Origin: Elusimicrobiota bacterium
GTDB taxonomy: Bacteria; Elusimicrobiota; Elusimicrobia; UBA1565; JACRDR01
DNA length: 62,505 nucleotides
Direction: 5' to 3'
NCBI GenBank assembly: GCA_041694815.1
Contig: JBGFSC010000030.1
Location: forward strand, 1 to 62,505
Each line of letters starts with the position of its first letter. The stretch's first letter is position 1. The notes under the pieces were generated by a model. It was not told the origin of the DNA. It saw only the letters and a list, made by a program, of their open reading frames with translations, and searched no databases. Below, in pieces: positions 20,631-41,385 of this stretch. The translations under genes and the position numbers were made by a program.

Positions 20631-20698
20631 ATTATATTTAGACGCCCCGATGAACAACCAGGGCCCAAGGGGCCTATTTTATCCCGCTCTTGGTCCTA
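20631..20698 (-). promoter_or_regulatory. Paired TAGGnCC boxes plus -10 element (locus A)
   Basis: Minus strand: TAGGACCAAGAG (from 20698), TAGGCCCCTTGGGCCCTG (from 20676), TATAAT (20636-20631). Confidence 0.6.
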
Positions 20699-22052
20699 GA
20701 TTCCTAACCAGCCTGCCGAGGGCCCAGACTCCGAGCGACGCGGCGAGTCCAGGATAGAACGGCGTAGGAAACGCGAGCGCCCAGGCCGCGGCGGAAAACA
20801 GCCAGCCGGCCAGCGCGCAACAGAAGGCGAAGGGGGCGCTGATTCGAAGACCATCGAAATAACTCGATACCGTGACGACCAGAAGCCCGGGTATCATGAC
20901 GCTTCCGACGACGAACCAAAGGCGGACGACCGATGGGATCGCCAAGGCCCCGGCGACGGCCAGGGCGCTGGAGGCGAGCAGGCCCCAGCGGATCCAGCGC
21001 TCCTGCGCTGCGGCCTGGGGCCTCAGCAACCGGCCCGCGGCGTCCTTGGCCAGAGAGATCGCCGAGAGGAAGCTGTTGGCGCTTAAGGCCGCCAGCGTCG
21101 AGGAGGCGACCCCGGCCAGAAATAATCCTCGGACCGCCGGCGGCAAGAGCAGCGAGGCCAGGGCCGGGTAGGCGGCCAGCGGCTCGCCGAGGTCGGGGAG
21201 GAGGGCTCGGGCATAAAGCCCCGCGGTCGTGGTCATGAAATCGAACAGAGCCCAGAAGGCGATGGCGACGGCGATGCCGCGCCTCGCGGTGGAGGCGTCC
21301 TTGGCGGCGCAGACGCGCTGGTGGAAGCCTGGATCGACGAAGGTCCAGACCGCGATGAAGAACCACGAGAGAAGATAGGCGGCGGAGCGCTCGCCCGTCG
21401 GGGTCAAATGGCTCGCGGGCAGGTGCAGGCTTAAGAAATCGATTCCGCCCGCATGCGCGAAGGCGAAGGGCAGGATAAGAAAGAATCCACCGAACATGAT
21501 CAGGAATTCGAGGCCGGCGCTCCATACCCCGGCGCGGAGTCCGCCCTTAAAAAGGAAGGCGATGGAGAGGGCGGTGACGACGATCGCGCAGAGGGGCATG
21601 GTCCAGCCGGTGACCCAGCGCGTCAGCAAGGAAAGCATCAGGATCTCGTCGGCTGGGCTCGCGAGGATGAAGACCAGAACGGCGGCCAAGACGGCGGTCG
21701 GGACGCCGTAGACGCGCTCGAGATGATCCGGCAGGGTCAGGCCCGGCTCTCGCCGTATGCGGGGGGCGAGGAAGCAGGCGTAGAGGGCGGCGAAAACGTA
21801 ATACGGGACGCCCTGGATCAGCCAATTCGAAAGCCCGTGCGTGAAGCTCGACTCCCCGATGCCGAGGGTCCCCCCGTAGAAGCTCGTCACCAGGGTGGCG
21901 ACGAAGGCCGGAAGGGCGAGGCTGCGCCCGGCGAGTATGTAGTCCTCGGCTCCCGGAAGCCGCCGCCCGGAGCCCCGAAAGCCCAGGAAAAGAACCATGC
22001 CCAAATAGGCGATCAAAACGGCGAAATCGGGCCAGGTGAGGTTTTGGATCAT
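20679..22052 (-). CDS. Sodium:solute symporter family transporter (possibly thiamine-related)
   Basis: EDYILAGRSL, many TM helices, DPGFHQRVCAAKD. Confidence 0.88.
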   Translation of the reverse strand: MIQNLTWPDFAVLIAYLGMVLFLGFRGSGRRLPGAEDYILAGRSLALPAFVATLVTSFYGGTLGIGESSFTHGLSNWLIQGVPYYVFAALYACFLAPRIRREPGLTLPDHLERVYGVPTAVLAAVLVFILASPADEILMLSLLTRWVTGWTMPLCAIVVTALSIAFLFKGGLRAGVWSAGLEFLIMFGGFFLILPFAFAHAGGIDFLSLHLPASHLTPTGERSAAYLLSWFFIAVWTFVDPGFHQRVCAAKDASTARRGIAVAIAFWALFDFMTTTAGLYARALLPDLGEPLAAYPALASLLLPPAVRGLFLAGVASSTLAALSANSFLSAISLAKDAAGRLLRPQAAAQERWIRWGLLASSALAVAGALAIPSVVRLWFVVGSVMIPGLLVVTVSSYFDGLRISAPFAFCCALAGWLFSAAAWALAFPTPFYPGLAASLGVWALGRLVRNLGPRAG

Positions 22053-22167
22053 TCAAGGACAAATCAAGCCGGTCCAGGATATATTAAATTATGTTTTAAA
22101 AACAAGAGTTATTTACCTGAACCTCTCTTTCGTCGCCGGGCGCTTTTTCATCGACTATCCTTAAGAC

Positions 22168-23133
22168 ATGAAGCTAAAGGCGCAGCTTTTGTCTGCGATA
22201 TTGGCGATCGGTTTCCCGGTTCGGGCCGATGAATTCGATTCCTCGGTTAAATCGGAGATCGCGAGAATCTGCAAGGAAGCGGCGCCTCTCGTCTATCGTT
22301 TTTGGATCCGTGAGCGCATGGCTGATGTCCCGATCCTTAGGGATTTCTTGCTGGATGCCTTTTCAGATACGGGATTTCCTCCACAGATAAAACGCGTCGT
22401 AAAAGAGGCGTTGGTCAAGAACGATGTGGTTGTCTTGCACCTTGACGAATCGACACGCAAGTCGTATGGCATCATTCCTGAAGCCCAGGCGGCGCATTTG
22501 CGAAGGACCCTGGCCGGCGACCTTCGGACCTTCGATGATGTGACGGTGTCCGTAAAGACATTGAACCAAGAGGCGAGCGAATCGACCATGGCCGTGCTTG
22601 CTCATCGCGCATTGGAGCATCGGCATACCCTTCTTGTCCAGCAGAGGCCGATAACGGCGGAGCAAAACGATTTTCTCGTGCTCATGCATGAGATGGCGCA
22701 TGTGCGGTTCGGCCGCATGCTGGAAAAGCATTTCGACCGCTTGCATCAGAGGCTGCCGGTGGGGCTCGCCCGGAAAGGCTCGGGTGAGACGAACGAAATA
22801 CATCAGCAACTCTATAATTTTCTTTCCGAGCGTTACGCGTATCAGATCGAATGCGAGGCCGCCTACAAGACCTTTCCTAAATACTATGACGCGGCTTATC
22901 GGCGGGATATTTGCGAGGATCGCGGGGAGTACAAAAACGCCATCTCTCGATTCGTGATCGACGCTTACCGCATCACCGACCCGCGCGTGTTGGCGCTGCG
23001 GGATATGTCGCTGCTGGATATTTTTATGGGGAAGAATCCCTCAGCGCAGAAACCACAGCCGCCCCGAATGAAGCCGGATGCGTACCCGGTTGGAAACGGC
23101 CTGATTGCCAAGCCCGCGGCTGCCGCGTTCTAG
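22168..23133 (+). CDS. Exported HEXXH zinc-metallopeptidase-like orphan
   Basis: Signal peptide ending VRA; LMHEMAH and downstream SERYAY; visibly lower GC than neighbours. Confidence 0.7.
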   Translation: MKLKAQLLSAILAIGFPVRADEFDSSVKSEIARICKEAAPLVYRFWIRERMADVPILRDFLLDAFSDTGFPPQIKRVVKEALVKNDVVVLHLDESTRKSYGIIPEAQAAHLRRTLAGDLRTFDDVTVSVKTLNQEASESTMAVLAHRALEHRHTLLVQQRPITAEQNDFLVLMHEMAHVRFGRMLEKHFDRLHQRLPVGLARKGSGETNEIHQQLYNFLSERYAYQIECEAAYKTFPKYYDAAYRRDICEDRGEYKNAISRFVIDAYRITDPRVLALRDMSLLDIFMGKNPSAQKPQPPRMKPDAYPVGNGLIAKPAAAAF

Positions 23134-23652
23134 GGGAAAACGTTTGAGAGGGTAACGCAATCCCGCGGCCGTGACGACGGCGGTTTTGCCGGCCGGCAGC
23201 AAAGAGACCCGCTGGCCGCGCCCGCAATTGAATGTATGCCTTCCTTTATGTAACAGGGACGCCTCGAGATCTCCCAACAAATGCAGGCGCATGCGGGAGG
23301 AGTACTTCTCCATGAGGGCGAGGTTGACGAGCAGATGATCCAGCTTCCCCCCGGCCGCCCCCGCGACCCAGGCCTCCAAGAAGCCGCGCCGGGACAAGAA
23401 ACGCAGTGCCTTTTCGAAATCGGAGGCATTTTCGTCGAAATCGCAGAGAAAGGTCGCGCGCTTTAAGGCGACTCGCCGCCGGGGCAGCGAGTCCATGTCG
23501 CCGATGATAAGCCGGGGCGTGAGGCCCAGCGCGGCGGCATGGCGCGAGCCCCCGTCGCAGCAGATGAGGAACCGGCCGCGGGCCATCGCGCGCACGCGCG
23601 AGGGGTTGGGTAGCTCGCCGTTGAGCAGGATCAGCGCGGAGCGGCGCGTCAC
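23041..23652 (-). CDS. thiN: Thiamine pyrophosphokinase
   Basis: CCDGGSRH, IIGDMDS, SDFEKAL, GGKLDH, GLRYPL, GLGN. Confidence 0.9.
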   Translation of the reverse strand: MTRRSALILLNGELPNPSRVRAMARGRFLICCDGGSRHAAALGLTPRLIIGDMDSLPRRRVALKRATFLCDFDENASDFEKALRFLSRRGFLEAWVAGAAGGKLDHLLVNLALMEKYSSRMRLHLLGDLEASLLHKGRHTFNCGRGQRVSLLPAGKTAVVTAAGLRYPLKRFPLERGSRGLGNQAVSNRVRIRLHSGRLWFLR

Positions 23653-24128
23653 CGGCGCAGGCGGCTTACGATCCGAGTGGTGGAATGGCCCTTCTTGAGG
23701 GGCACGAGCGCGACCCGGCCGGCATGTTCTTTGCCCGCCACCTGATCCGGCCTGTAATCGGCGCCCTTGACGAGCAATTCCGGCCGCAGCTCGGAGAGGA
23801 GCTTCTCGGGGGTATCTTCGGGAAACACCACGACCGCGTCGACGGCGGCGAGCGCCGCCAGCACGCGGCAGCGGTCGGCTGCCCTGTTGATCGGCCTCTC
23901 GGGACCCTTGCCCAGGCGCCGCGCGGAGTCGTCGGAATTAACCCCGACGACGAGCACGTCCCCCAGGGAGCGGGCCTTCTCGAGCAGCTGCACGTGTCCC
24001 GGGTGCAGCAGGTCGAAGACGCCGTTGGTAAACACCACCTTCGCCCGCGCGGCGGCCCAACGGCGCCTGAGCTCGAGCAGCTCCCCGCGCGAGACGATCT
24101 TGCGCCCCGTGTCGCCGTCGCAGCGCAT
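23649..24128 (-). CDS. rfaE2: D-glycero-beta-D-manno-heptose 1-phosphate adenylyltransferase
   Basis: VFTNGVFDLLHPGH, GVNSDDS..KGPERP, LVKGADY, HSTT; TGATG overlap with gmhA. Confidence 0.92.
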   Translation of the reverse strand: MRCDGDTGRKIVSRGELLELRRRWAAARAKVVFTNGVFDLLHPGHVQLLEKARSLGDVLVVGVNSDDSARRLGKGPERPINRAADRCRVLAALAAVDAVVVFPEDTPEKLLSELRPELLVKGADYRPDQVAGKEHAGRVALVPLKKGHSTTRIVSRLRR

Positions 24129-24736
24129 CAATGGGCCTTCGGGGCTCCGGGGAACATCGCGTCCTCGACGATGTCGCAGAGGATCTGGATCACCGTGATA
24201 TGCGCCTCTTGGATGCGGGCCACCGTCGCCGAGGGCACGCATAGGCATATATCCACCAAGCCCTTCATCTTCCCGCCCGACTGGCCGGTGAGCCCCAAGC
24301 GGGCGAGTCCGAGCTCCTTTGCCTTCTCGAGCGCCCGCAGGACATTGGGCGAATTGCCGCTCGTTGATATGGCCACCGCCACGTCGCCCGGTTTCGCGTG
24401 CGCCTCCAGCTGCCGCGCGAAGACCTGCTCGTAGCCGAAATCATTGGCGATCGAGGTGAGATCGGCCGTGTTGACCGTCAGGGCCACGGCGGGCAGTGGG
24501 GCGCGGTTGCGCCGCAGCCGGCCCACGAGCTCGTCGGCGAAGTTGGTGGCGTCGCAAGCCGAGCCGCCGTTGCCGAAGGTGATGATCTTATTGCCCCGGC
24601 GGTAGGCGTCGAGGAGCAGATCGGCGGCGCTCGTGATGACGTCGGCCTCGGCCTTCAGCGCCGCGATGGTCTTGGCGCTTTCCTCTAGCTGCCCGATGAT
24701 GTTCTGCCTAACGGGGCTTGCCGTTGCTTTGGGCAT
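24128..24736 (-). CDS. gmhA: Phosphoheptose isomerase
   Basis: GNGGSA, ANDFGYEQVFARQ, ISTSGNS, ARIQEAH. Confidence 0.93.
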   Translation of the reverse strand: MPKATASPVRQNIIGQLEESAKTIAALKAEADVITSAADLLLDAYRRGNKIITFGNGGSACDATNFADELVGRLRRNRAPLPAVALTVNTADLTSIANDFGYEQVFARQLEAHAKPGDVAVAISTSGNSPNVLRALEKAKELGLARLGLTGQSGGKMKGLVDICLCVPSATVARIQEAHITVIQILCDIVEDAMFPGAPKAH

Positions 24737-26093
24737 TATTGTTCTCCAGTAGCCGATCGGTGAGATGCGTGTCGAAGTCTCCGGATTTAAAATCGGCGTG
24801 GGCGAGCACCTTAAGGTGGAAGGGGATCGTCGTGCGGATCCCTTCCACGGCGAACTCCTGGAGCGCTCGCGAGCCGCGCTGGATCGCGCTCGCGCGATCC
24901 GCCCCGAAGACGATGAGCTTGGCCAGCAAGCTGTCGTAATAGCTGGGCACGGTGTAGCCGGCGTAGAGGTGGGTGTCGACGCGCACCCCGGGGCCACCGG
25001 GTAGGCTCAGGCGCTCGATGGTTCCCGGGCAGGGCGCGAATTGCCGCGCGGGGTCCTCCGCGTTGATGCGGTGCTCGATCGCGTGGGAGCTGATTCGAGC
25101 CGCGCGCGAGGAGTCGAAGCTCAGGGGCTCGCCCATGGCCAAGGATATCTGCTCGCGCACGAGGTCGAGCCCCGTGACCGTCTCGGTGACGGGATGCTCG
25201 ACCTGAAGGCGCGTGTTGACCTCGATGAAATAGAAGCGCCCATCGGTGTCGAGCAGGAACTCGACCGTGCCCACGTTGGAGTAGCCGGCCGCGCGGACTA
25301 AGCGCACGGCGGCTTCCATCATCTCCTCGCGGATCTTAGGCGTGACCGCGGGGGAAGGGGACTCCTCGATGAGCTTCTGGTGGCGGCGCTGCACCGTGCA
25401 ATCGCGCTCGGGAAGGGCCACGGCGTTTCCCCGGAGGTCGGCCGCGATCTGGATCTCCACGTGCCGGGGATGCTCGATGAGCTTCTCGATGTACACCGAT
25501 CCGTCGCCGAAGGCGGCCTTGGCCTCGGCCGCCGCCATCTTGATCTCGGAAACGAGGCCCGAGGGTTCGCGGACGAGGCGCAGGCCCTTGCCGCCTCCTC
25601 CGGCGGCCGCCTTGACCATGAGCGGAAACCCGATCGAGCGGGCCTGGGCCAGCACACCGTCGGCCGCCTCGTCGACGCAGCCCTTCGTGCCCGGCACCAC
25701 CGGGACCTTGGCGCGGATCGCCAGCTCCTTCGCCGCGGATTTATGGCCCAATTGCCGTATGGCCTCGGGGCTGGGGCCGATGAAGGTCAGTCCCTTTTCG
25801 CGGCAGGCGGCGGCGAACCCCGCATTCTCCGAGAGGAAGCCGTAGCCGGGATGCACGGCGTCGGCCCCGGAGGCCTTGGCCGCGGAAAGCAAGGCGCCTG
25901 CGTTCAGGTAGCTTTCGCGGGCCGGAGCCGGGCCGATGCAGAAGGCCTCCTCCGCCAGGGCGACGTGCATGGACTCGCGGTCGGCCTCCGAATAGACCGC
26001 CACCGAGCGCAGGCCCATCTCGCGGCAGGCGCGGATGACGCGCACGGCGATCTCGCCCCGGTTGGCGACGAGCACCTTGCGGAAGCCTTTCAC
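24708..26093 (-). CDS. accC: Biotin carboxylase
   Basis: ANRGEIA, HPGYGFLSEN, GGGGKG, ERDCTVQRRHQK, EVNTRLQVEH, YYDSLLAK. Confidence 0.95.
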   Translation of the reverse strand: MKGFRKVLVANRGEIAVRVIRACREMGLRSVAVYSEADRESMHVALAEEAFCIGPAPARESYLNAGALLSAAKASGADAVHPGYGFLSENAGFAAACREKGLTFIGPSPEAIRQLGHKSAAKELAIRAKVPVVPGTKGCVDEAADGVLAQARSIGFPLMVKAAAGGGGKGLRLVREPSGLVSEIKMAAAEAKAAFGDGSVYIEKLIEHPRHVEIQIAADLRGNAVALPERDCTVQRRHQKLIEESPSPAVTPKIREEMMEAAVRLVRAAGYSNVGTVEFLLDTDGRFYFIEVNTRLQVEHPVTETVTGLDLVREQISLAMGEPLSFDSSRAARISSHAIEHRINAEDPARQFAPCPGTIERLSLPGGPGVRVDTHLYAGYTVPSYYDSLLAKLIVFGADRASAIQRGSRALQEFAVEGIRTTIPFHLKVLAHADFKSGDFDTHLTDRLLENNNAQSNGKPR

Positions 26094-26506
26094 GGAGACT
26101 CCACGGCGCTCGGGGCCTGGCAGGCGCGCGGGCCGTAAATCGCTAGGGCGGCGGCGGCCAGCGCCGCGCAGGCCAGCCAGAGGCCCAGCCCCAAAAATCC
26201 GCCGCGTCGCCGGTCCTCTTGGGACGCGGACGGGGAGCGCCGCGATGCGTTGATGATGCCGAGAACGGCTGTCCTCGGAAGCAACGAGGGGCGAGCGGAG
26301 GCCGTGCCGCCGTTAGGTGCGGGGGCGAGCAGGAGCAGCGGCGAGCCGCACTGGTCGCAGAAGTTCTTGGCCGGTGAATTTTGCGCCTGGCAGCCGCCGC
26401 AGAGTTTGATCACGCGCCCGCCGCAAGCTGCGCATTTGGACGCGGAGGCATCCGCCTTCGCCGAGCATTGGGCGCATTGCACGCGCGCCGAGACGCCTTG
26501 GCTCAT
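26090..26506 (-). CDS. Double zinc-ribbon membrane protein
   Basis: Four CxxC pairs (CAQC, CAAC, CGGC, CDQC) and a C-terminal TM helix; ATGA overlap with upstream gene. Confidence 0.8.
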   Translation of the reverse strand: MSQGVSARVQCAQCSAKADASASKCAACGGRVIKLCGGCQAQNSPAKNFCDQCGSPLLLLAPAPNGGTASARPSLLPRTAVLGIINASRRSPSASQEDRRRGGFLGLGLWLACAALAAAALAIYGPRACQAPSAVESP

Positions 26507-31588: not shown

Positions 31589-32273
31589 CGGAATAACCCT
31601 GGGGTGCGACGACGACCACGATCTCGCCGAGTATCTTCTCCCTGCGGCCGAGAACTTCGCGGACCTGGGAGACGGGCCCCGTGATCCATTCCTCATGCCT
31701 CTTGCTGAGCTCGCGCGCGACGGCTAGCTCGATGTTCTCGCCGAACGCGGCCGAAACTTCATCCAGCAGATCGAGCGTCCGGAAGGGGGATTCGTAAAGC
31801 ACCGTCGTCCTCGCGCCCGCGGCGGCTTCCTGGAGCAGGCGCGCGCGCTTGCCGCCGGAGCGCGGCAGGAATCCGAGGAATAGCAGCGAGTCTCCGGGAA
31901 ACCCTGAGCCGGCCACGGCGGCGGCCACGGCGCTGGGGCCCGGCAGCGAGCAGACCGGAATCCGCCGGCGGCGCGCGGCGGCGACAAGCCTCACCCCGGG
32001 GTCCGAGAGCACCGGGGTGCCGCTGTCGGAGACCAGGGCGAGGGCCTCGCCTTGCTCTAAGCGCTCCAACGCCTTTTCGACGCCCCGCGCGTCATGCTCA
32101 TTGTAGCGCAGCGCCGGCACGCGGATGTCGAAATGGCTCAGGAGTATGCGCGTGCGCCGCGTGTCCTCGCAATAGACCGCGCGGACCTCGCGCAGCACGC
32201 GCAGGGCCCGCTGGGTGATGTCCTCGAGATTGCCCAGGGGCGTCGGGACGATATACAGGCAACCCGGGCTCAT
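31581..32273 (-). CDS. rsmI: 16S rRNA (cytidine1402-2'-O)-methyltransferase
   Basis: LYIVPTPLGNLEDIT, CEDTR, VSDSGTPVLSDPG, YESPFR, ARELSK. Confidence 0.95.
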   Translation of the reverse strand: MSPGCLYIVPTPLGNLEDITQRALRVLREVRAVYCEDTRRTRILLSHFDIRVPALRYNEHDARGVEKALERLEQGEALALVSDSGTPVLSDPGVRLVAAARRRRIPVCSLPGPSAVAAAVAGSGFPGDSLLFLGFLPRSGGKRARLLQEAAAGARTTVLYESPFRTLDLLDEVSAAFGENIELAVARELSKRHEEWITGPVSQVREVLGRREKILGEIVVVVAPQGYSGG

Positions 32274-32926
32274 GGGCCGTCCAGGTTGAGAAAGGCCTCG
32301 ACGACGGCGGGATCGAACTGGGTCCCGGCGCCCTTGCGGAGCTCCTCGCGGGCCACCTCGGGGCTTAAGGCCTTGCGGTAGGGGCGGTCGGAGAGCATCG
32401 CCTCCCAGGCGTTGATGACGGCGACGATGCGCGATCCCAATGGGATCTCGCCGCCCTTAAGACCCTCGGGGAATCCCTTGCCGTTGAACCATTCCTGGTG
32501 ATAGAGAACGATCTGCGCGACAGGCCCCATCTGCTTGGCGGAAGACAGGAGCTGATGGCCGATCGTCGAGTATTTCTTGATCTGGGCGTATTCCTCGGGG
32601 GTCAGCTTGCCCGGCTTGTTGAGCAAGGTCTGGTCGATGCCGATCTTGCCGACGCGGTGGAGCATCGCGGCGTATTCGACATGCTTGGCCGCGGCCTCCG
32701 ACATGCCCAAGGCGCGCGCGAGCTTAAGCGCCTGCTCGCGCGCCTTGGCGGAGCTGCCTTCATGGAGCGGGTCCTTGAGATCGGCGGCGCGGGCGAGAAT
32801 CTGCAGCATTTCCATATAAAAACCCTGCTGGCTCTCGAGCAGCTCCGCATGCTCGCGCCGCATGGAGAACAGACGCCAAACGGCGACGGCCAGGGCGGCC
32901 GACAGAATGCCGATGATGAAAATCAC
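32270..32926 (-). CDS. Membrane-anchored degenerate HD-GYP domain protein
   Basis: N-terminal TM; LNKPGKLTPEE, GLKGGEIPLGSRI, DRPYRKA, GTQFDP; metal ligands altered. Confidence 0.88.
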   Translation of the reverse strand: MIFIIGILSAALAVAVWRLFSMRREHAELLESQQGFYMEMLQILARAADLKDPLHEGSSAKAREQALKLARALGMSEAAAKHVEYAAMLHRVGKIGIDQTLLNKPGKLTPEEYAQIKKYSTIGHQLLSSAKQMGPVAQIVLYHQEWFNGKGFPEGLKGGEIPLGSRIVAVINAWEAMLSDRPYRKALSPEVAREELRKGAGTQFDPAVVEAFLNLDGP

Positions 32927-32967: not shown

Positions 32968-33032
32968 TAGGCCTTTCGGCCGACGCGCTAGGTCCTTTGG
33001 CTCAGGTGAACCCGCCGGCAGCGTTTTATACT
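32968..33032 (+). promoter_or_regulatory. Paired TAGGnCC boxes plus -10 element (locus B)
   Basis: TAGGCCTTTCGGCC (32968), TAGGTCCTTTGGCTC (32989), TATACT (33027-33032). Confidence 0.6.
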
Positions 33033-33041: not shown

Positions 33042-34136
33042 ATGATAATCTCGATTTGGATCGCCTCGATCTTATTGCAGGCGGCATGGGCGGGGGGGCC
33101 CAACACTCTCCTAAAAGAGATCGACGTCTTCAAGCTCCCAACGTCCGGGCTTCGCAGGGTTTTCTACAGCCCAGACCCATCTCGAGTCTACACCGTCGGA
33201 GGAGAGGACGGTATCATTGGCTGGGATATCCGGACCGGCAAGCCCGGCGATTGTCATTCGAAGGGCTTTTACCCTTGGAGCGCGATCAGTCCGGACGGCT
33301 CGCGCGTTTTGGCTGCGCAAAAAGTAGGTTATGGTACTTTTCTCAGTTTTTTGAATCCCAGCAATGGACAAATCGTCGAGACCGGCTTTCGCCGGTATGT
33401 CAGGGCCAGCCACTGGAGCCGCGATAGCCGACGCCTTCTGGTATTGGATGGGTTCGGCGATATATGGATTTTCAACGCCGAAACGGGCGTGCACGAGAGG
33501 GTCTTGACCGTCGAGAGAGCCGTGCATGTATCCTGGAATGAAGACGAAACGAGGGTGCTGACGATCGAAGAAGACGGCCGCTACCGGTCCTGGAGCCTAG
33601 ACTATAAATGGCCGATGTGGCTCGGCCGCCGGCGAGAACTCGGTGTCCTAAAGTTTCAAGGAAAGGAACTCGGCTATGCGAATGTCAGCCCAGACGGCTC
33701 GAAAGCGGTGATCCGAGAATCGGATTATCAATTGCCGGAAATATGGGATTTGCGGAATATGGAAAGAGTCTCGCTCTTGGAAAAGGCGTGCCGAAGCCGA
33801 CTTGGATTTCATTTAACCGACTCTAAATTGCTCTGCATCGAGCATAACTCTCACATCGCCAGCCTTTTCGACTTGGGCAGCGGCAGGCGGATCGCTAGCT
33901 TCGAGTGCGCGGATGGAGAATCTATCGACGACGCGGCCTTAAGCCCCGATGGCAAAAGCGTGGCGATCGTTAGCGGGGGATCTGCCCGGTTCTTCGTCGA
34001 AGGGCCCGGTGGCAAGTGGTCTCCCCTGGTGCCTCCCGAGCGATTGCGTAAAGTCCGGCGCTTGCTCGATGGCCCAGCGTTGCTGCGGAACGTGGGGACG
34101 GCGCTGGAAACCGCCGAAGAGCGGTTTAGGCTTTAG
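33042..34136 (+). CDS. Exported WD40/beta-propeller protein
   Basis: Signal peptide ending AWA; repeated SPDG and WD motifs. Confidence 0.78.
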   Translation: MIISIWIASILLQAAWAGGPNTLLKEIDVFKLPTSGLRRVFYSPDPSRVYTVGGEDGIIGWDIRTGKPGDCHSKGFYPWSAISPDGSRVLAAQKVGYGTFLSFLNPSNGQIVETGFRRYVRASHWSRDSRRLLVLDGFGDIWIFNAETGVHERVLTVERAVHVSWNEDETRVLTIEEDGRYRSWSLDYKWPMWLGRRRELGVLKFQGKELGYANVSPDGSKAVIRESDYQLPEIWDLRNMERVSLLEKACRSRLGFHLTDSKLLCIEHNSHIASLFDLGSGRRIASFECADGESIDDAALSPDGKSVAIVSGGSARFFVEGPGGKWSPLVPPERLRKVRRLLDGPALLRNVGTALETAEERFRL

Positions 34137-34146: not shown

Positions 34147-34422
34147 TTAGGGCTGTATCCGACGTCCCGTAACGTATTTGTGAATGATGCTGGACACCAG
34201 CGTCTGGTAAGGAACCCCTTCTTCTGCGGCCCTGGCCTTGATCCGGTTTAGGTCCGAGCGGGAGATGCGGATGTTCATTCGCTGGTCTTTGCGGAGCGTA
34301 TTCCTGGCGATCTCCGCGTACGCCCTAAGTTCCGATTGCTTGGGTTTAACGAGCTCCCAGTCGCCGCTCTCGATGGCGTCCAAAATCTCTCGCTCCTCTT
34401 CGTCGAGCTTATATTTTTTCAT
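34147..34422 (-). CDS. Ribbon-helix-helix (CopG/BrnA-like) antitoxin
   Basis: RMNIRIS..DL..IK.RAAEEGVPYQTLVSSIIHKY; ATGA overlap with toxin. Confidence 0.88.
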   Translation of the reverse strand: MKKYKLDEEEREILDAIESGDWELVKPKQSELRAYAEIARNTLRKDQRMNIRISRSDLNRIKARAAEEGVPYQTLVSSIIHKYVTGRRIQP

Positions 34423-34697
34423 GAGGATCCTCCCGCCAGATAGCGCTTGGTCATTTTTCGGCTGGGAATAATCGTTTTCAAAAAAATGCGTTTCTCCTCT
34501 TCCACGCAAGGTACGATGTAAATATAGTTATTCACGGCAACGAGAAACTGCTTCTGATGGCTGAACTTGCCGCGGCCGGGCACGACGGCCACTACAGAGC
34601 CTTCCTCAATGTAAGACACTATCGCCTCGAATGATATTCCCCGTTCTTCGAGCAGCTTTCGGTTCTTCGCGTCGTCCCACTCGAAGGTCTTAGACAC
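34419..34697 (-). CDS. BrnT-family toxin
   Basis: FEWDDAKNRKLLEERGISFE, IFLKTIIPSRK. Confidence 0.85.
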   Translation of the reverse strand: MSKTFEWDDAKNRKLLEERGISFEAIVSYIEEGSVVAVVPGRGKFSHQKQFLVAVNNYIYIVPCVEEEKRIFLKTIIPSRKMTKRYLAGGSS

Positions 34698-34704
34698 TAT
34701 CTCC

Positions 34705-34733
34705 AGTATGGCAGGATGTGTGCCTAATGTCAA
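34705..34733 (-). promoter_or_regulatory. Sigma70 promoter of the BrnT-type TA operon
   Basis: Minus strand: TTGACA, 17 nt, CATACT, then 7 nt to GTG. Confidence 0.65.
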
Positions 34734-34748
34734 TACATAAAATAGGTC

Positions 34749-36263
34749 TTAGCCGCCGCGCAGAAAGCGGAGCGCGGCTTGCATGGAGGCCCGGCGGTAT
34801 CCATGCGCGTCGATGGCGGCGACACGGTGCTTAAGCAGCGACGCGTCCGAGGAACTGCGGATCAAGACGACGATCAGTTTTTTCGCAAATCGCCGTTGAA
34901 GCGTCTTGAGGGTCTGGGCCTGTCCCTCAAAGCGCATCGCCTCGAAGCAGAAGAAAATGACGATTTCGGCTTTCCCGGCCTCGCGCGCGACGCGGCGGGC
35001 TCTCGCCTCGTCGCCAAGAATGGGCGAGGCTAAGACGCGACGCCGTCCGGGCCAGCGTTTGGTCCATTGCAGCAGGTCCTTGGCGGGCCGCGCCGGCCCG
35101 CCCTCGAAGGTGAAGAGTTCTCGGACCTGGCGAAAATCGGGACAGATCAATGCCAGCCGGGAGTCCGGCCGCAGCTCCAAAGGAATCTTGACCGAACCGG
35201 GACGGATCTTTTCGACGGCGGCCTGCGCGACCTGAAGAGACAGGGCCTGCGCTCCTTTCGAGTCGGGCGCTGTCCAGGAGGCGCGCGCGTCGTCGCGTCG
35301 CTTGTCGAGCAGCGCCTGCACGCGGCGGCAGGCATGTTGGAAATCCGCCTTCGGTACCCGGCCCTCGGCCAAGGCCTGGGCCAGCAGCTCGACCGCCTCG
35401 CGCTGGGCCTCCCGCGCATGCGCGATCAGCAGTATGTCATGCCCGGCGGCGAGCGCCTCGATGGCCGCCTCCTGGATGGGCCAGCGTTCGGTGATGGCGC
35501 CCATGCAGAGATCATCCGAGATCACGACTCCGTCGAACCCAAGTCGACGGCGCAGCAGGGCGTGGGTGATTTTGCGGGAGAAAGTCGCCGGGACATCGTC
35601 TTTATCCAGCGAGGGAAAGCAGACATGGGAGCTCATCACGCAATCGACGCCGGCTTCGACCGCGTCGGCGAAGGGCGCCAAATGCCTGCGCGCGAAAAGG
35701 CCTCGGGGCAGCCGTATGGTCGGCAGGGTCTGATGCGCGTCCTTGGTGGCCGCGCCCTTGCCCGGGAAATGCTTGGCGCAGGCCGAGACGCCGTGATCCT
35801 GCATCCCGCGTATCATCGCCGACCCCAATCGGCCGACCAGCGCCGGGTCCTCGCCGAAGGAGCGGATGCCGACCCCGGGGTTGTATTTTGCGGTCAAGAC
35901 GTCGACGACCGGCGCCAGGTTGAGCCGTACGCCCATCGCCCTGAGCTCGAGCGCCATCTGCCGTCCGACCTGGTAGGCGAGGCCCGTGCTGCCGGCCTTG
36001 CCGAGGCAGGCATTGCCCGGGAAGGCGGTCACGCCTTGCGAGAAGCGCAGCACCCAGCCGCCCTCATGATCGATCGAGAAGAGCAGAGGGCGGCCGACGC
36101 GCTGCTGCAGTTCGGCGGTGAGGCGGCGCAGCTGCGCGGGGGATTCGATATTGCGCGCCAAGAGCAGCACGCCGCAGGCGCCGGTTTCTTTTAATAGGGA
36201 TACGGAGTCGCGAGTCGGCCGGGTCCCCTCGATGCCGAACATAAAGGGAAAGCCCGGGTTCAC
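34749..36263 (-). CDS. nagZ: Beta-N-acetylhexosaminidase, GH3
   Basis: IDHEGG, NLAPVVD, RSFGEDP, KHFPGKG....DAH, ISDDLCM. Confidence 0.88.
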   Translation of the reverse strand: MNPGFPFMFGIEGTRPTRDSVSLLKETGACGVLLLARNIESPAQLRRLTAELQQRVGRPLLFSIDHEGGWVLRFSQGVTAFPGNACLGKAGSTGLAYQVGRQMALELRAMGVRLNLAPVVDVLTAKYNPGVGIRSFGEDPALVGRLGSAMIRGMQDHGVSACAKHFPGKGAATKDAHQTLPTIRLPRGLFARRHLAPFADAVEAGVDCVMSSHVCFPSLDKDDVPATFSRKITHALLRRRLGFDGVVISDDLCMGAITERWPIQEAAIEALAAGHDILLIAHAREAQREAVELLAQALAEGRVPKADFQHACRRVQALLDKRRDDARASWTAPDSKGAQALSLQVAQAAVEKIRPGSVKIPLELRPDSRLALICPDFRQVRELFTFEGGPARPAKDLLQWTKRWPGRRRVLASPILGDEARARRVAREAGKAEIVIFFCFEAMRFEGQAQTLKTLQRRFAKKLIVVLIRSSSDASLLKHRVAAIDAHGYRRASMQAALRFLRGG

Positions 36264-36309
36264 GCCGGAATTATACTATACCAATCGGAGGGAACGGGTC
36301 AGGACGCGC

Positions 36310-37323
36310 TTAGCGGCGGCACTGCGACGGTCCCGAGAACGCGTCGGCGTCCGTGATCACTCCAGGCCCGCCGCCGTCGCTGACGGTCCATTCGCCTTCG
36401 GTGGTGTGCAGATTCCCGTAAAATTCGCCTTCGACGCTGCAGTAATAGCTCTGGGCGGCCTTAAATTCCTTCTCGGCCTCCACCAGGATCGCCCTCGCCC
36501 GGCCGATCGCTTCGGGTGCGGGACGGTCAGGCACCCAGGTCGGGTTATTAAAGAGCGCGGGATCATTGCTGTAATTGTAGTTCCAGAAGCCCGTTTCACC
36601 CAGCGCAGCGGATACGAGTTGGCCGCCCTTTTTTATATGATCCAGGGCTTTTCGCGAGTCGGCAACGGCCTTCGGGGAGTCTTTGCTGCATTTAGAGGCG
36701 ACTCTTTCCGCCCTTTGGATTTCTTTGTATTCGTAGTCGATGAGTCTTGATATATAGTCATATATAGAATTGGTCTCCGAATAACTTCCGCCTGTCCTGT
36801 TGGCCGCATAGAGTTTGTGCAGCGTCTCCGGTGGAGTATTCGGGTCTTCGAGGGCGTCCAAATAGGCGCGCGCGTCGGCGACGTCGTTTCTACTCCCGTC
36901 GATCCAATTGCCGGCCGAGGCCTGCATGACGGTGAGGCAGGCGTCCTTGCGCGTTGATTCGATGGAGGAGGAGACGCTAAAGGAAACGGTTGGGATCAAA
37001 ATGCCCATCATCAACGCGATCAGCGCGACCGCCTTGAGTTTCTTGAGCCAATCGGCTTTCGAGCAGGTTTGCGCGGTTCTAGGCGCTGGCGGCTGGAGCT
37101 TGGCCGGGCGCAGCGTACGCAGGTTCGCCGAGGCCGCGCTCAGCTTGTCGGAAATGGATCCGCCGCTCGCGGCCACCGATTCCGCTGCGCCGGCCTTGGA
37201 GGAGTCGACGCCATCGGTCAAGGCCGCAGCCTGGGTGTGTTGCGACTCGAGCGAGGCGTTATTTTCCGCGCGCAGAGCCGCAGGGATTGTGAGAAGAACC
37301 ACCAGAAGCATTATTTTTTTCAT
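36310..37323 (-). CDS. Orphan exported/membrane protein, tandem paralogue 3 (last in operon)
   Basis: GAGGAG ribosome-binding site; signal peptide; near-identical blocks with the two upstream genes. Confidence 0.85.
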   Translation of the reverse strand: MKKIMLLVVLLTIPAALRAENNASLESQHTQAAALTDGVDSSKAGAAESVAASGGSISDKLSAASANLRTLRPAKLQPPAPRTAQTCSKADWLKKLKAVALIALMMGILIPTVSFSVSSSIESTRKDACLTVMQASAGNWIDGSRNDVADARAYLDALEDPNTPPETLHKLYAANRTGGSYSETNSIYDYISRLIDYEYKEIQRAERVASKCSKDSPKAVADSRKALDHIKKGGQLVSAALGETGFWNYNYSNDPALFNNPTWVPDRPAPEAIGRARAILVEAEKEFKAAQSYYCSVEGEFYGNLHTTEGEWTVSDGGGPGVITDADAFSGPSQCRR

Positions 37324-37350
37324 TATCGTCTCCTCACTTGTCATCAGTTC

Positions 37351-38370
37351 TCATCGGCGGCATTCCGCGGGTCCAGTAAATGCGTCCGCGTCCGTGATCA
37401 CTCCAGGCCCACCGCCGTCGCTGACGGTCCATTCGCCTTCGGTGGTGTGCAGATTCCCGTAAAATTCGCCTTCGACGCTGCAGTAATAGCTCTGGGCGGC
37501 CTTAAATTCCTTCTCGGCCTCCACTAGGATCGCCCTCGCCCGGCCGATCGCTTCGGGCCCGGGATTGTCGGGCGTCCAGGTCGGATTTTTATAAATGGCG
37601 GGATCATTCCCGTAGTCGTACTTCCAGAATCCCGTTTCATCCAGCGCGGCATAGATGAGCTGGCCGCCCTTTTTTATATGGTCCAGGGCTTTTCGCGAGT
37701 CGGCGACCGCCTGCGGGGAGTCTTTGCTGCATTTAGAGGCGACTCTCTCCGCCCGCTGGATTTCTTCGTATTCGTGGGCGATGAGCCTCTCGATGTAGGG
37801 ATTTTGGGGGCTTGAATAGCTTCCGCCATTCCTGACGTTCGAATACAGTTTATGCAGCGTTTCCGGCGGGGTATTCGGGTCCTCGAGGGCGTCCAAATAG
37901 GCCCGCGCGTCGGCGACGTCTTTTCTGCTGCCGTCGATCCAGTTGCCGGTCATCGCCTGCATAACGGTAAGGCAAGCGTCCTTGCGTACTGACTCATTGT
38001 ATGAAGAGACGCCGGAAGAGACGGCCGGGATCAAAATGCCCAGGGTCAAGCCCAGCGTCAACGCGATCAGCGCGACCGCCTTGAGTTTCTTGAGCCAATC
38101 GGCTTTCGAGCAGGTTGGCGCGGTTCTAGGCGCTGGCGGGCGGGGCTTGGCCGGGCGCAGCGTACGCAGGCTCGCCGAGGCCGCGCTCAGCTTGTCGGAG
38201 ATGGATCCGCCGCTCGCGGCCACCGATTCCGCCGCGCCGGCCTTGGAGGCGTCGACGCCATCGGTCAGGGCCGCGGCCTGCGCGTGTTGCGTCTCCGGGC
38301 TGATATTGTTTTCGGCCCGCAACGCTAGCGGGAGGAAGAGCAGGGCGGATAAGAGCAGTGTCTTTTTCAT
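37351..38370 (-). CDS. Orphan exported/membrane protein, tandem paralogue 2
   Basis: AAGGAG ribosome-binding site; signal peptide, QHAQAAALTDGV, internal TM, conserved Cys. Confidence 0.85.
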   Translation of the reverse strand: MKKTLLLSALLFLPLALRAENNISPETQHAQAAALTDGVDASKAGAAESVAASGGSISDKLSAASASLRTLRPAKPRPPAPRTAPTCSKADWLKKLKAVALIALTLGLTLGILIPAVSSGVSSYNESVRKDACLTVMQAMTGNWIDGSRKDVADARAYLDALEDPNTPPETLHKLYSNVRNGGSYSSPQNPYIERLIAHEYEEIQRAERVASKCSKDSPQAVADSRKALDHIKKGGQLIYAALDETGFWKYDYGNDPAIYKNPTWTPDNPGPEAIGRARAILVEAEKEFKAAQSYYCSVEGEFYGNLHTTEGEWTVSDGGGPGVITDADAFTGPAECRR

Positions 38371-38389
38371 CGTTATTGACTCCTTGATT

Positions 38390-39463
38390 TTACGGGCATT
38401 TCGAGGGAGTCTCGGCTCCCCCTCCTAGCGCGTCGGGGTCCGTGATCACCTCGACACGTCCGGTATCCGGATTGTAGTTCGAGACGGTCCACTCGCCTTC
38501 GGTCGTATACAGGCCGCGGCGGAATTCGCCGTTGAGGCTGCAGGAATACTTTTGGGCGGCGGTTACCTCCAGCTGGGCCCTCTCGAGATGCGCCCTTGCC
38601 CGCGCGATGGCCTCGGGGGAAACGGGATCGGGGCGCCACGGTTTTTCCGGATGTGCCACGGGATCGGAGGAGTATTTCCAAAAATCCGTCTCGGCCAACG
38701 CGTCATGCAAGGCGGAGCCGGCGTTCTTGAGATGGTCTACGGCCTTTCGCGCGTCGGCGACCGCCTGCGGCGCGGTCTCGCTGCAGTTGGCGGCCGTTCT
38801 CTCGGCCCTTTCGACCCTCTTGTAGTCAGTGTGGTAGCGGCCTTCGCCGTAACGAAGCCCGCTATTGTTGTTGAGAATTTCTTCCGCGTAGTACGCCTTG
38901 ATATAAAGCCTATGAAGCTCTTCCGCGGAGCTTTCGGGATTCGCGAGCGCGTCCAAATAGTTGCGCGCGCTGTCGACATATCCTTGGCTCCGGCCGACAT
39001 TGCCGCCAATGGGACCCACCGCCTGCATGACGGTGAGGCAGGCATCCTTGCGTACCGATTCCTTGTAGGAAGAAACGCCGGAAGAGACGGCCGGAATCAA
39101 AATGCCCAGCATCAACGCGATCAGTGCGACCGCCTTGAGTTTCTTGAGCCAATCGGCTTTCGAGCAGGTTGGCGCGGTTCTAGGCGCTGGTGGGCGGGGC
39201 TTGGCCGGGCGCAGCGTACGCAGGCTCGCCGAGGCCGCGCTCAGCTTGTCGGAGATGGATCCGCCGCTCGCGGCCACCGATTCCGCCGTGCCGGCCTTGG
39301 AGGCGTCCACGCCATCGGTCAGGGCCGCGGCCTGCGCGTGTTGCGTCTCCGGGCTGGAGCCATCGTCGAGCGCGAAAGCGACGCGGGCGCCGAGAATAAA
39401 GAAGGCGGCAAGGGTCAGGGCAAATAAGGATTTTTTCAAAGATTTTTCATAATGAGTTTTCAT
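38390..39463 (-). CDS. Orphan exported/membrane protein, tandem paralogue 1
   Basis: N-terminal block nearly identical to paralogue 2; diverged C-terminal domain retains Cys and TTEGEWTVS. Confidence 0.85.
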   Translation of the reverse strand: MKTHYEKSLKKSLFALTLAAFFILGARVAFALDDGSSPETQHAQAAALTDGVDASKAGTAESVAASGGSISDKLSAASASLRTLRPAKPRPPAPRTAPTCSKADWLKKLKAVALIALMLGILIPAVSSGVSSYKESVRKDACLTVMQAVGPIGGNVGRSQGYVDSARNYLDALANPESSAEELHRLYIKAYYAEEILNNNSGLRYGEGRYHTDYKRVERAERTAANCSETAPQAVADARKAVDHLKNAGSALHDALAETDFWKYSSDPVAHPEKPWRPDPVSPEAIARARAHLERAQLEVTAAQKYSCSLNGEFRRGLYTTEGEWTVSNYNPDTGRVEVITDPDALGGGAETPSKCP

Positions 39464-40014
39464 CTGAGTTTTTTATCGATAAGGCCCCCGATCCAAGCGG
39501 CGATTCGAGGCGCCAGCGCCGCCAAAAGTAGCGGAGAGAGGGTCATTGCCAAAATAAGGCTGCCCGAGAGCCATATCGGTCCGGATGAGATCGGTTTGTA
39601 TTGAGGCAACAGCTCCGATGTTCCTAGCAGTGCTAGTCCAACGACGATCACTCCTAGAAGAAAAGAATACATTCGTCCCAGCTCCGAGCGCCAGAATTTC
39701 GCCGCTTTTTTGCCGTATGGGATAGGTTCCTCGACGACGATGGGTGAGGGGGCTTTTCTTGCCAGAGACCAAAGAACGGGAAATTTGATTCTTCCGGTTG
39801 TCCAACCTTTGACGGAGCCGATTTGCGATGGGCCTGGCCCTTGGACGAGCGCATCGGCGGCGGCCACTCCATCGGTGAGCGTCGCGGCGCTCGCATGCTG
39901 CGCCTCAAGGGAATTAGCGCCGAGCGCGGGAATGCCCGAGGAAACAAGCCATAGGATGGATAGGGCGGCGCCGGACAGTCGGTCGTTCGCCCTTATTTCG
40001 GGTCTTGCGCCCAT
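39460..40014 (-). CDS. Orphan protein with signal peptide and two C-terminal TM helices
   Basis: SLEAQHASAATLTDGV motif; overlaps both neighbours. Confidence 0.72.
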   Translation of the reverse strand: MGARPEIRANDRLSGAALSILWLVSSGIPALGANSLEAQHASAATLTDGVAAADALVQGPGPSQIGSVKGWTTGRIKFPVLWSLARKAPSPIVVEEPIPYGKKAAKFWRSELGRMYSFLLGVIVVGLALLGTSELLPQYKPISSGPIWLSGSLILAMTLSPLLLAALAPRIAAWIGGLIDKKLR

Positions 40015-40748
40015 AGCTTGACTGAATTAGCGAGATCGACGAGTTTTCCATGGTATTCGTCCGCGGTCTTGGCGTTCGCCGCCAATCGATCGGCTTCCTG
40101 CTCCAAGGCGGCCAAGAAGCGCTCCGCCTCCTCGATCACGAGAGGGCTTTTGTAGCGCGCCATCCGGGCCAAGCGGGCGCGCTCCTCATTCGCCGCGGCG
40201 TGAATTTCCTGGCGGATCTGCTCGACGGAAAGGGTCCGCATCGATTCGGATTCGGCGGTCATGGAGAGGACCTTCCAGGAGCTGTCAGCGACCGTCTTTC
40301 CGCGCTGCCATAGGTAGTTTTGATAATCGACCAGCGCCTGGTTGGGCAAGGCGGGAGTCTTCGGCTTCGCGTTAAGGTCCATGTAGAGTTTCGGGATCAA
40401 CAGTGCCAACGCGACAAAGATGGCCGGACCGTAGACCAACATGCCCACGGCGAAGCTGATCCAATAGCCGATGCCCAGCCCGCGGCGAATTTTGTCGTAA
40501 GTCTCGCCGTTGGATGTTTTTTTAGCCGGAGCCAGGACCGGGAGGGGAACCGGAGCAAAGACCATCGGGCTCAACTGTCCTTGGCCGAAAACCGGCTGGG
40601 GCAACGCGGAGGCGGAGGCCTTCGCTAGCACGCCGGTCGAAGCGGACGCCTTGCCCGACTGGTCGAAGAGAGGATCCGGAGGAAGGGCGCTCGATATGCT
40701 GGGGAGGAGTAAGGCAAACGTCAAAAGCATTGTATTTTTCATTGTCAT
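39993..40748 (-). CDS. Orphan protein with signal peptide, TM hairpin and helical C-terminus
   Basis: MTMKNTMLLTFALLL; ATGA overlap with upstream gene. Confidence 0.72.
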   Translation of the reverse strand: MTMKNTMLLTFALLLPSISSALPPDPLFDQSGKASASTGVLAKASASALPQPVFGQGQLSPMVFAPVPLPVLAPAKKTSNGETYDKIRRGLGIGYWISFAVGMLVYGPAIFVALALLIPKLYMDLNAKPKTPALPNQALVDYQNYLWQRGKTVADSSWKVLSMTAESESMRTLSVEQIRQEIHAAANEERARLARMARYKSPLVIEEAERFLAALEQEADRLAANAKTADEYHGKLVDLANSVKLWAQDPK

Positions 40749-41167
40749 TCCAAGTCCGCAAGGGCGCGCAGCGCGCGCATTTTGACCGACAACGCGTGAA
40801 CGAAGTGAAATTGCGGGTGAGAGTCGTCGCCGCAACCTTTCTCGATTTTCTGGATTTCCTTGTTCATTTGGGACAGGATACCCTTGACTTGCTTTGAAGA
40901 GGCGCCGGTATCGTTGGAAGCCTGATCGGCGATCTTCTTGAGCGTCTCATCGATTAGGCGGGAGGCCTCCTGGGTTGTAACGCTGATATCGGGCCGCTGC
41001 GCCGGATCGCCGGTAACGCTCTTTTCAAATATGGTTCTCAGGGCCGCTTCGGCTTGTCGCGCCTGCGCCTTGACCGCCATCTTGAGTGAGGGATCCCCAA
41101 TCGGATCGGTGGCGAATAGGTTCACGGGTGCCGCGAGCAGGACTGCGATCGACAGTGCTTTCAGCAT
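40745..41167 (-). CDS. Orphan exported helical protein, first gene of the operon
   Basis: AGGAG 7 nt before ATG 41167; MLKALSIAVLLAAPVNLFA. Confidence 0.72.
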   Translation of the reverse strand: MLKALSIAVLLAAPVNLFATDPIGDPSLKMAVKAQARQAEAALRTIFEKSVTGDPAQRPDISVTTQEASRLIDETLKKIADQASNDTGASSKQVKGILSQMNKEIQKIEKGCGDDSHPQFHFVHALSVKMRALRALADLE

Positions 41168-41207
41168 CAGAGTTCTCCTGAGCGCCATCATTGCGCTCGA
41201 CAGCATT

Positions 41208-41274
41208 AGGGTAACGGGACGAGGGAAGCGCGCGCAGGGTCGGAGGACCTATGCGGAAATAGTCTTTGGACCTA
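41208..41274 (-). promoter_or_regulatory. Paired TAGGnCC boxes plus -10 element (locus C)
   Basis: Minus strand: TAGGTCCAAAGACT (from 41274), TAGGTCCTCCGACCCTG (from 41251), TACCCT (41213-41208); another TAGGCC on + at 41283. Confidence 0.6.
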
Positions 41275-41385
41275 AGCCGAACTAGGCCTTTTGTTTTCTT
41301 GGACTGCGCGAATTGAAGCGCATCATGGTGAGCCGATCAACGGCGTGCTATACTAAGTCATGGAACTTTTTGAGGGTTCAATCGC

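Follow-up and report, generated by a model that had tools for sequence, protein, structure and literature searches.

Paired palindromic boxes before exported-protein genes of Elusimicrobiota point to a near class-wide, apparently undescribed secretome regulon

Three loci (A, B and C) in a 62,505-bp stretch of Elusimicrobiota bacterium GCA_041694815.1 carry paired TAGGnCC-like boxes upstream of genes for secreted proteins. The stretch, hereafter the window, is positions 1-62,505 of JBGFSC010000030.1, contig C24 of this genome (G000; 2.77 Mb, 54 contigs, 63% G+C; GTDB lineage Elusimicrobiota; Elusimicrobia; UBA1565; JACRDR01). We found that the boxes are palindromes standing in pairs at a fixed distance from a -10 hexamer, an architecture common to the order and three more families. 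They are probably the operators of the sole NarL/LuxR-type regulator of the genome, which, judging from comparative sequence analysis, would activate some 80-90 promoters of mostly exported proteins, probably by way of kinases encoded in a Tad pilus cluster. This near class-wide secretome regulon is real and apparently undescribed, and its mechanism is of a known kind; a literature search, light on subscription papers, found no paper on the box motif or on any Elusimicrobiota regulon.

Paired palindromes and promoter geometry

The six box strings quoted in the initial annotation were recovered at 20698 and 20676 (minus strand) for locus A, 32968 and 32989 (plus strand) for locus B, and 41274 and 41251 (minus strand) for locus C, with the spacings given there, and TAnnnT hexamers do lie 40, 38 and 38 bp from the respective proximal boxes. 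Their description as direct repeats was not borne out. TAGG-N8-CCTA was the commonest arrangement among 60 gaps tested genome-wide (n=25), and each box is therefore a 16-bp palindrome, degenerate in sequence (TRGGHC-YWWR-GDCCYA). A symmetric matrix, seeded and refined without contig C24, converged on the consensus TRGGCC-YWWR-GGCCYA, and the direct-repeat unit was rejected on the gap count together with this matrix. The loci are laid out as follows.

Locus A, distal half-box: 20683..20698, minus strand; left half only, -2.1 bits; overlaps the last codons of an SSF symporter gene
Locus A, proximal palindromic box: 20660..20675, minus strand; 11.1 bits, starts 39 bp before the -10 hexamer
Locus A, -10 hexamer TATAAT: 20631..20636, minus strand
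Locus A, gene: 19975..20592, minus strand; 205-aa signal-peptide-like orphan with a hydrophobic C-terminal half
Locus B, distal box: 32968..32983, plus strand; 13.2 bits
Locus B, proximal box: 32989..33004, plus strand; 14.8 bits, starts 38 bp before the -10 hexamer
Locus B, -10 hexamer TATACT: 33027..33032, plus strand
Locus B, gene: 33042..34136, plus strand; exported WD40 beta-propeller, start codon 9 bp past the -10 hexamer
Locus B, divergent HD-domain gene: 32270..32926, minus strand; shares the B boxes, with TATTCT at offset 40
Locus C, third and most distal box: 41283..41298, minus strand; right half only, 6.0 bits
Locus C, middle box: 41259..41274, minus strand; 10.3 bits
Locus C, proximal box: 41236..41251, minus strand; 10.5 bits, starts 38 bp before the -10 hexamer
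Locus C, -10 hexamer TACCCT: 41208..41213, minus strand
Locus C, gene 1: 40745..41167, minus strand; 140-aa signal-peptide-like protein without a Pfam match
Locus C, gene 2: 39993..40748, minus strand; signal-peptide-like membrane protein without a Pfam match, start inferred from an ATGA overlap with gene 1
Locus C, gene 3: 39460..40014, minus strand; 184 aa, with an N-terminal QHxxAAxLTDGV segment common to genes 3-6
Locus C, genes 4-6: 36310..39463 (38390-39463, 37351-38370 and 36310-37323), minus strand; tandem orphan paralogues

The boxes paired at B and C score 10.3-14.8 bits with the matrix trained without C24. The quoted register of the locus A proximal box is off by 1 bp, and this locus is a weaker member, having one full box and a half-site. 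The divergent HD-domain gene is a possible second target of the locus B boxes.

The signal resides in the pairing and spacing of the boxes and not in the single 7-mer. Occurrence at background frequency, with no positional or gene-class bias, had been named as grounds for abandoning the motif, and the bare TAGGNCC is indeed at chance in the window (19 observed, 22.1 expected, no enrichment); the paired, spaced boxes are enriched genome-wide. Pairs of TAGGnC peak at spacings of 21-25 bp (7, 11, 14, 16 and 8 pairs), neighbouring spacings having mostly 0-5, and matrix-scored boxes are spaced 23-24 bp apart in tandem and 46-47 bp in triples, with a further peak at 7-8 bp. Pairs of at least 8 bits were present in 60 of 997 upstream regions and in none of 10 shuffles, a test that is partly circular because the matrix had been refined on the same upstream regions. 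Genome-wide we counted 96 paired loci, 89 outside called genes and 7 inside; the window has 20 first genes preceded by 50 bp or more, and a pair was found at the four that flank loci B and C and at no others.

The position of the -10 hexamer, which played no part in matrix training, is fixed relative to the boxes. Counted from the box start, TAnnnT is most frequent at 38 bp (64 of 589 box-orientations, other offsets mostly 2-13), and the second and third boxes give echoes at 60-62 and 84-85; this agrees with the 38-40 bp offset proposed from three loci. Composite hits at offsets 37-40 numbered 98 (89 distinct promoters), compared with 6-26 in eight other windows of offset. ATG or GTG codons peak 50-52 bp after the box start, and the start codon lies 5-9 bp past the -10 hexamer in 37 of 79 first genes, many of them leaderless; from these offsets the proximal box therefore spans -50 to -35, centred at -42.5. 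Anchoring conversely on 267 leaderless genes, we observed boxes scoring 9 bits or more in 20 at 37-40 bp and in 0-4 at five control offsets. The claim that these promoters lack a good -35 element is supported: a match of at least 5/6 to TTGACA was found in 0 of 89 boxed and 32 of 239 box-less leaderless promoters (p=3e-5), but the mean -35 match count is alike in the two groups (p=0.24). The layout is that of a class II activator-dependent promoter: the candidate activator site adjoins a poor -35, and its distance to the sigma70-type -10 is constant. The hexamer peak and the composite hits support the dedicated activator site that had been proposed, and on this geometry the paired boxes are almost certainly such a site.

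Target genes and recurrence in relatives

Genes were called with a hexamer-model script of our own rather than Prodigal, and signal peptides with our own hydrophobicity rule rather than SignalP; both are approximate, the latter with a background of about 25%. First genes behind the boxes were signal-peptide-like in 45 of 72 cases by called starts, versus 168 of 684 elsewhere (odds ratio 5.1, p=1.6e-10), in agreement with the dispersed set of exported proteins originally postulated; with corrected starts the count was 59 of 79. Among later operon genes the excess is marginal at best (26/73 versus 345/1396, p=0.052), and nothing remains when operons are drawn with a 150-bp gap. The median G+C of targets is lower, 60% versus 64%.

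We scanned 80 first genes of at least 80 aa for domains, one further candidate being left out, and used as controls 36 box-less signal-peptide genes drawn at random from 133. Ten targets are peptidases (two S8, S9, M28, M16, trypsin, zincin, two M41 and a Lon with a signal peptide); others are endonuclease I, an SLT transglycosylase, three FGE-sulfatase-like proteins, seven WD40 propellers, and TPR and HEAT proteins. The description of the targets as orphans applies to individual loci. The locus A protein has no Pfam match and, among 3531 candidates scored, matched itself alone; genes 4 and 5 of locus C are 59-83% identical to gene 6 (36310-37323), and a homology search with this trio matched only the trio. 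As a class, targets are no more often Pfam-negative than the controls (41/80 versus 15/36, p=0.42; signal-peptide targets only, 34/61, p=0.21). A post-signal tag (LFDG-like) was rejected as a general feature because, over the six patterns tried, 2-5 of 59 targets have it (p 0.02-0.11).

The locus B protein belongs to an expanded family, with 35 WD40-like matches in G000. Tandem arrays of such genes, each led by a boxed promoter, lie at C38:140775-154414 (10 genes) and C20:59083-70201 (6 genes, two other genes interspersed). Separately, a very strong box pair stands beside three DnaA-box-like 9-mers upstream of secA (C51:14095-14160); it is confined to G000, 1 of 30 secA loci, and is absent at those of 29 other genomes of the order. 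A CtrA-like, origin-binding master regulator of the cell cycle was rejected, the DnaA-box cluster between dnaA and dnaN (C18:21291-21555) having no box of at least 7 bits.

The architecture recurs in relatives. The composite pattern including the -10 hexamer gave 747 matches in 41 of 41 genomes of the order, compared with 5 for the reversed pattern and 87 for a shifted offset. In a 200-genome sample of the phylum, with families labelled f2, f4, f5, f6, f7 and f8, the strict pair pattern was present in 11/11 genomes of the order, 54/60 of f4, 9/11 of f5 and 2/2 of f8; it was found in 3/8 other genomes of the same class (3 matches, versus 13 for the reversed control) and in 3/108 of other classes. 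Four large f2 genomes gave high counts for the reversed control of this short pattern too, noise that disappeared once the -10 hexamer was added. Downstream genes were signal-peptide-like at 20 of 29 sites in other genomes of the order (4 without an open reading frame under our own rule), at 12 of 18 in f4 and f8, and, by eye, at 6 of 7 in G064. All seven order targets with a homologue in G000 are boxed there or lie behind a box, while none of 16 f4 and f8 targets has a homologue in G000: the switch is old and its cargo turns over.

Targets in relatives also include non-secreted proteins, namely the regulator itself (L023:9902) and an ECF-type sigma factor (L215, by Pfam). At other such loci (L025, L038 and L046) the proteins look PilZ-like by eye.

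Candidate regulator, known systems and alternative readings

The initial annotation noted that the regulator gene is not in the window, and our candidate indeed lies elsewhere. The only GerE/LuxR helix-turn-helix (HTH) protein (PF00196) of G000 is a 226-aa receiver (REC) plus HTH protein at C27:50865-51545 (PF00072, 1.6e-29; PF00196, 6e-19). Its best solved relatives are VraR, DevR and NarL, its phospho-acceptor pocket is intact (D13, D14, D59, S87 and K109, aligned with VraR), and its nearest relatives are metagenome-assembled genomes (MAGs) of Elusimicrobia wherever the taxon is named. Close orthologs (E <= 1e-85; one split over two contigs) are confined to 84 sampled genomes, comprising all of the order, f4, f5 and f8. 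The motif is present in 76 of these 84, versus 6 of the 116 others. Identity is 62-91% across five families, and the recognition helix reads SVKT[VI]KNHLN in 81 of 81 close orthologs. Taken together, these sequence data make it likely that this NarL/LuxR-type protein reads the boxes.

The gene stands in a Tad locus that runs from Flp, TadE, RcpC, a secretin, an ATPase, two T2SSF proteins, a TPR protein and an unknown membrane protein, through an OmpR-type regulator, a lone REC protein, a dCache-HAMP kinase, a REC-hybrid kinase and the NarL-type regulator, to pseudopilin-like genes (TadE) and FtsH. The two kinases beside the regulator are of the dCache-HAMP-HisKA and REC-HisKA types. Kinase-regulator order is kept in G064, G029, G110, G126 and G092, from three other families, and Tad genes lie in the stretches fetched for the first four. 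The interval separating the regulator from the pseudopilin-like genes downstream contains a strong pair, with TAnnnT absent at 37-40 bp in the direction of those genes. Between the Tad genes and the kinases, a 374-aa membrane protein without a Pfam match (C27:44900-46024; L133:8501-9625) is conserved in all families checked except f7 and may connect the pilus with the phosphorelay. Many relatives in the order (G070, G086, G088, G140, G146, G172, G174, G178, G186 and G190) encode two closely similar copies of the regulator, compared with one in G000; in G190 one copy is in the kinase cluster and the other stands alone.

The closest described counterparts at the promoter are DevR/DosR of M. tuberculosis and OsdR of S. 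coelicolor, likewise NarL-family REC plus HTH regulators (PMC3177182, PMC4082495, PMC5069765; 10.1101/2023.11.21.568195 was also compared). They share palindromic G-G-N-C half-sites with tandem boxes as the hallmark (PMC3177182, PMC5069765), and the 16-bp OsdR consensus (PMC5069765) scores 13.0 bits on the G000 matrix. DevR, too, has its primary box at -42.5 and a second one in tandem, spaced 21 bp in the example given versus 23-24 bp here (PMC3177182). The base-contacting DevR residues 179/182/183 (PMC4082495) align without gaps to K186/K189/N190 of the G000 protein, giving K/K/N at all three positions in both. Unlike those of DevR, the targets here are exported, with no dormancy or hypoxia families (e.g., universal stress proteins) among the 80 first genes scanned, and the regulator differs from both in lying in a Tad locus and in a different phylum. 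HisKA_3 kinases are the usual partners of NarL-family regulators, the oxygen-sensing DevS and DosT being of this class, whereas no HisKA_3 kinase (PF07730) was found in G000. At the promoter the system is DevR/OsdR-like, yet we do not count it as a DevR/OsdR regulon, the DevR kinase and target tests having failed.

In its genomic setting the system recalls PprA-PprB of P. aeruginosa, in which a NarL/LuxR regulator and a kinase lie among tad genes and the output is at the surface or secreted (PMC3510237). PprB has a list of 35 genes and directly activates the flp-rcp-tad genes (PMC3510237), whereas in G000 there is no box before the Flp operon and the promoters, about 80-90, are dispersed. A further difference is the presence of two kinases (dCache-HAMP and REC-hybrid), often with the lone REC and the OmpR-type protein. 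The genomic placement is PprB-like. Predation by a Kil/Tad system is attributed to Myxococcus and reportedly also to Bdellovibrio. The likeness to the Myxococcus system (PMC8460266) lies in the combination of a Tad pilus apparatus with numerous exported hydrolases and orphans in one cell; neither 'response regulator' nor 'Elusimicrobi' occurs in the available text of that paper.

We propose that the neighbouring dCache-HAMP and REC-hybrid kinases would relay a surface- or pilus-linked signal, whereupon a dimer of the phosphorylated regulator would sit on each palindrome. Two or three dimers may bind cooperatively, the proximal one recruiting RNA polymerase in place of a -35 element, as for DevR. 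The predicted output on attachment to a surface or cell would be a fast-turnover secretome of peptidases, nuclease, lytic transglycosylase, WD40 propellers and many orphans. That the trigger is linked to the pilus or to contact is plausible at slightly below even chances; a predatory purpose is a good deal more tentative. The role in host or prey contact that had been suggested is conjectural, its circumstantial support coming only from the regulator's place in the Tad pilus locus.

Several observations weigh against the proposed regulon, besides the partial circularity of the shuffle test. Co-occurrence follows phylogeny, so any clade-restricted gene would fit it. In G000 neither the regulator nor the Flp operon is preceded by a box, and the composite promoter precedes the regulator gene at only 1 of 80 loci in relatives; general autoregulation was rejected accordingly. 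In f7, G062 has a syntenic, 51%-identical regulator with the KTVKN core (SEKTVKNH) and yet no motif pairs, and G301, with a 52%-identical regulator, lacks them as well; a relaxed motif gave 1, 0, 0 and 0 matches in the divergent-regulator genomes G062, G003, G031 and G144. The KTVKNH helix is also found in an unrelated solved HTH protein (7x1k), and the helix alone therefore does not fix the motif. To these are added the missing HisKA_3 partner, the 19 of 80 first genes that fail the signal-peptide test, some of them divergent-side housekeeping genes, and the peptidases, which are no commoner in targets (10/80) than in other secreted proteins (4/36).

The last point also favours the alternative that survives best, which concerns purpose only: the same regulator and boxes may serve envelope remodelling, adhesion or protein scavenging instead of a contact-triggered attack. 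We regard this as a close call, a little under one chance in two. In P. aeruginosa, the tad-locus regulator PprB drives a biofilm programme (PMC3510237), and the system is retained in 60 of 60 small-genome f4 members. Elusimicrobiota MAGs from activated sludge were grouped with those having the fewest extracellular proteins (PMC11495043), and 'predat', 'pili' and 'Tad' occur nowhere in the available text of the main genomic survey (10.1101/765248). Against it, Tad systems mediate prey killing in Myxococcus (PMC8460266), and the low G+C of the targets, their lineage specificity and their tandem paralogue arrays suggest conflict-driven turnover.

It is improbable, though worth weighing, that the activator-dependent promoters are real and their boxes are read by another clade-restricted dimeric factor, either a divergent CRP/FNR-type protein or an unrecognised one. 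Class II sites of CRP/FNR proteins are typically 16-bp palindromes near -41.5, and three CRP-family proteins are encoded in G000; the lack of an autoregulatory box there and of the motif in f7, despite its related regulator, would fit such a reader as well. Comparison of the CRP, OmpR-neighbour and GerE families as candidates points back to the NarL/LuxR-type protein: the half-site matches that of OsdR and DevR, sites in G092 read GGGACTAAAGTCCC-like, and CRP proteins are equally present in motif-less genomes. On a spot check, the CRP protein of G064 is only 25% identical to its closest counterpart in G000, which makes a CRP-type reader unlikely. The OmpR-type neighbour was rejected as reader, not being found in f4 (0/60) or f8 (0/2), families that have the motif.

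Very unlikely is a factor that mainly represses or silences recently acquired secreted-protein genes, for which the lower G+C of targets would speak. At f4 loci L321-L325 (five genomes), the TATAAT of a gene for a 198-200-aa TPR-like lipoprotein sits between two boxes, which suggests repression there. Most sites, in contrast, have the box upstream of and abutting a missing -35 at a sharply fixed distance, which is activator geometry; a repressor has no need of such spacing. That the palindromes are REP-like repeats or footprints of insertion sequences (IS) without a regulatory role is barely credible: 14 of 96 paired loci are abutted by IS ends, one of which supplies the first two box bases, but 81 of 96 lie away from contig ends, different sites are unrelated in the DNA separating and surrounding their boxes, TAnnnT and start codons keep a constant distance from the boxes, and target-site duplications show the boxes to be older than the insertions.

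Elusimicrobiota are a mostly uncultured phylum, and the way of life of the free-living members is not known. The regulon as we read it provides a motif, a candidate regulator and, for each motif-bearing genome, a list of co-regulated orphan secreted proteins, which opens the lifestyle question to direct experiment, by asking what signal switches the set on. The motif can also serve as an annotation tool for the starts and promoters of otherwise invisible orphan genes. Were the set a contact-deployed arsenal, these uncultured bacteria would be contact-dependent predators or epibionts.

Insertion sequences at the boxes and other features of the window

Contig ends are found within 500 bp of paired loci more often than expected (15/96, p=2.5e-4), in 14 cases owing to the abutting ends of two IS, here IS-A and IS-B.

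IS-A contig ends (loci L240-L257): C12_3, C15_5, C17_5, C33_3, C38_5, C3_3, C50_3, C5_5, C9_3
IS-B sites in G000: C12_5, C17_3, C20_3, C27_3, C38_3, C45_3, and one nested at C12_3

IS-A has inverted ends of about 25 bp, and all 9 ends of one type stop exactly 7 bp before the start of a TRGGYC box, always in one orientation; 7 of these 9 pair with a partner end via a 4-bp duplication, and its interior was not assembled. Ends C3_3 and C38_5 have one common site with different genes beyond. IS-A was not found in 100 other genomes of the order, and eight metagenome matches were discarded as unrelated chance matches. IS-B is an IS4-like element with a 389-aa DUF4372 plus DDE_Tnp_1 transposase (complete copy in G088, L270:261-1430). 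All 7 of its insertions in G000 have positions 3-11 of the most distal box in duplicate, the end of the element restoring the first two bases of the box, and 6 of the 7 are paired by the 9-bp duplication. The register is the same in G217 (5/5 ends), G221, G088, G243 and G118 (2/2). No box was present at the G267 end of IS-B or beside any of the 7 copies of a relative (54% identity) in G301, which lacks the motif; 26 ends of a third, control IS had none either.

The duplicated bases vary while the register to the box array is fixed, and triple arrays are hit at their far edge, which suggests that insertion is positioned by a bound protein. An alternative is sequence preference combined with selection for intact promoters. 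The widest reading, a near class-wide, Tad-coupled phosphorelay that deploys an arsenal on contact with prey or host and on whose bound regulator at least two IS families dock, is speculative and on balance doubtful. Docking on the bound regulator, if true, would make the upstream edge of the operator a safe harbour that spares the promoter, and operators hit in fixed register would be added to Xer, REP and att sites as destinations of targeted transposition.

The ISAba32 subgroup of IS1202 is similar in its fixed orientation, its insertion a few bp from a host-protein binding site and its short target duplication (10.1101/2022.12.17.520857). Its targets are XerCD (xrs) sites (10.1101/2022.12.17.520857), whereas IS-A and IS-B target predicted transcription-factor operator arrays. 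The elements differ further in the DUF4372 plus DDE_Tnp_1 transposase and the 9-bp duplication inside the box of IS-B, and in the 4-bp duplication and ends 7 bp from the box of IS-A; an IS1202-type identity for IS-B was rejected on its transposase and on its predicted operator target. The same literature search found no paper on IS targeting of operators. In f6, which is without the motif, IS4-like relatives (L291 in G100, L292 in G060) lie beside TTTACA-like direct repeats about 60 bp before TAnAAT, and possibly dock at the operator of another regulator.

Within the window, loci B and C are flanked by BrnT/CopG-like and MazE/PIN toxin-antitoxin pairs and a retroviral-type aspartyl protease gene (34147-34733 and 41386-42558), neighbours that are expected of variable islands. 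An open reading frame at 22168-23133 (plus strand) encodes a 321-aa signal-peptide-like protein with a metalloprotease-like HEMAH motif, with no Pfam match, paralogue or upstream box pair. At 481-6714, a signal-peptide-like protein of 2077 aa joins HEAT repeats with PEP-utilising and PPDK_N domains.

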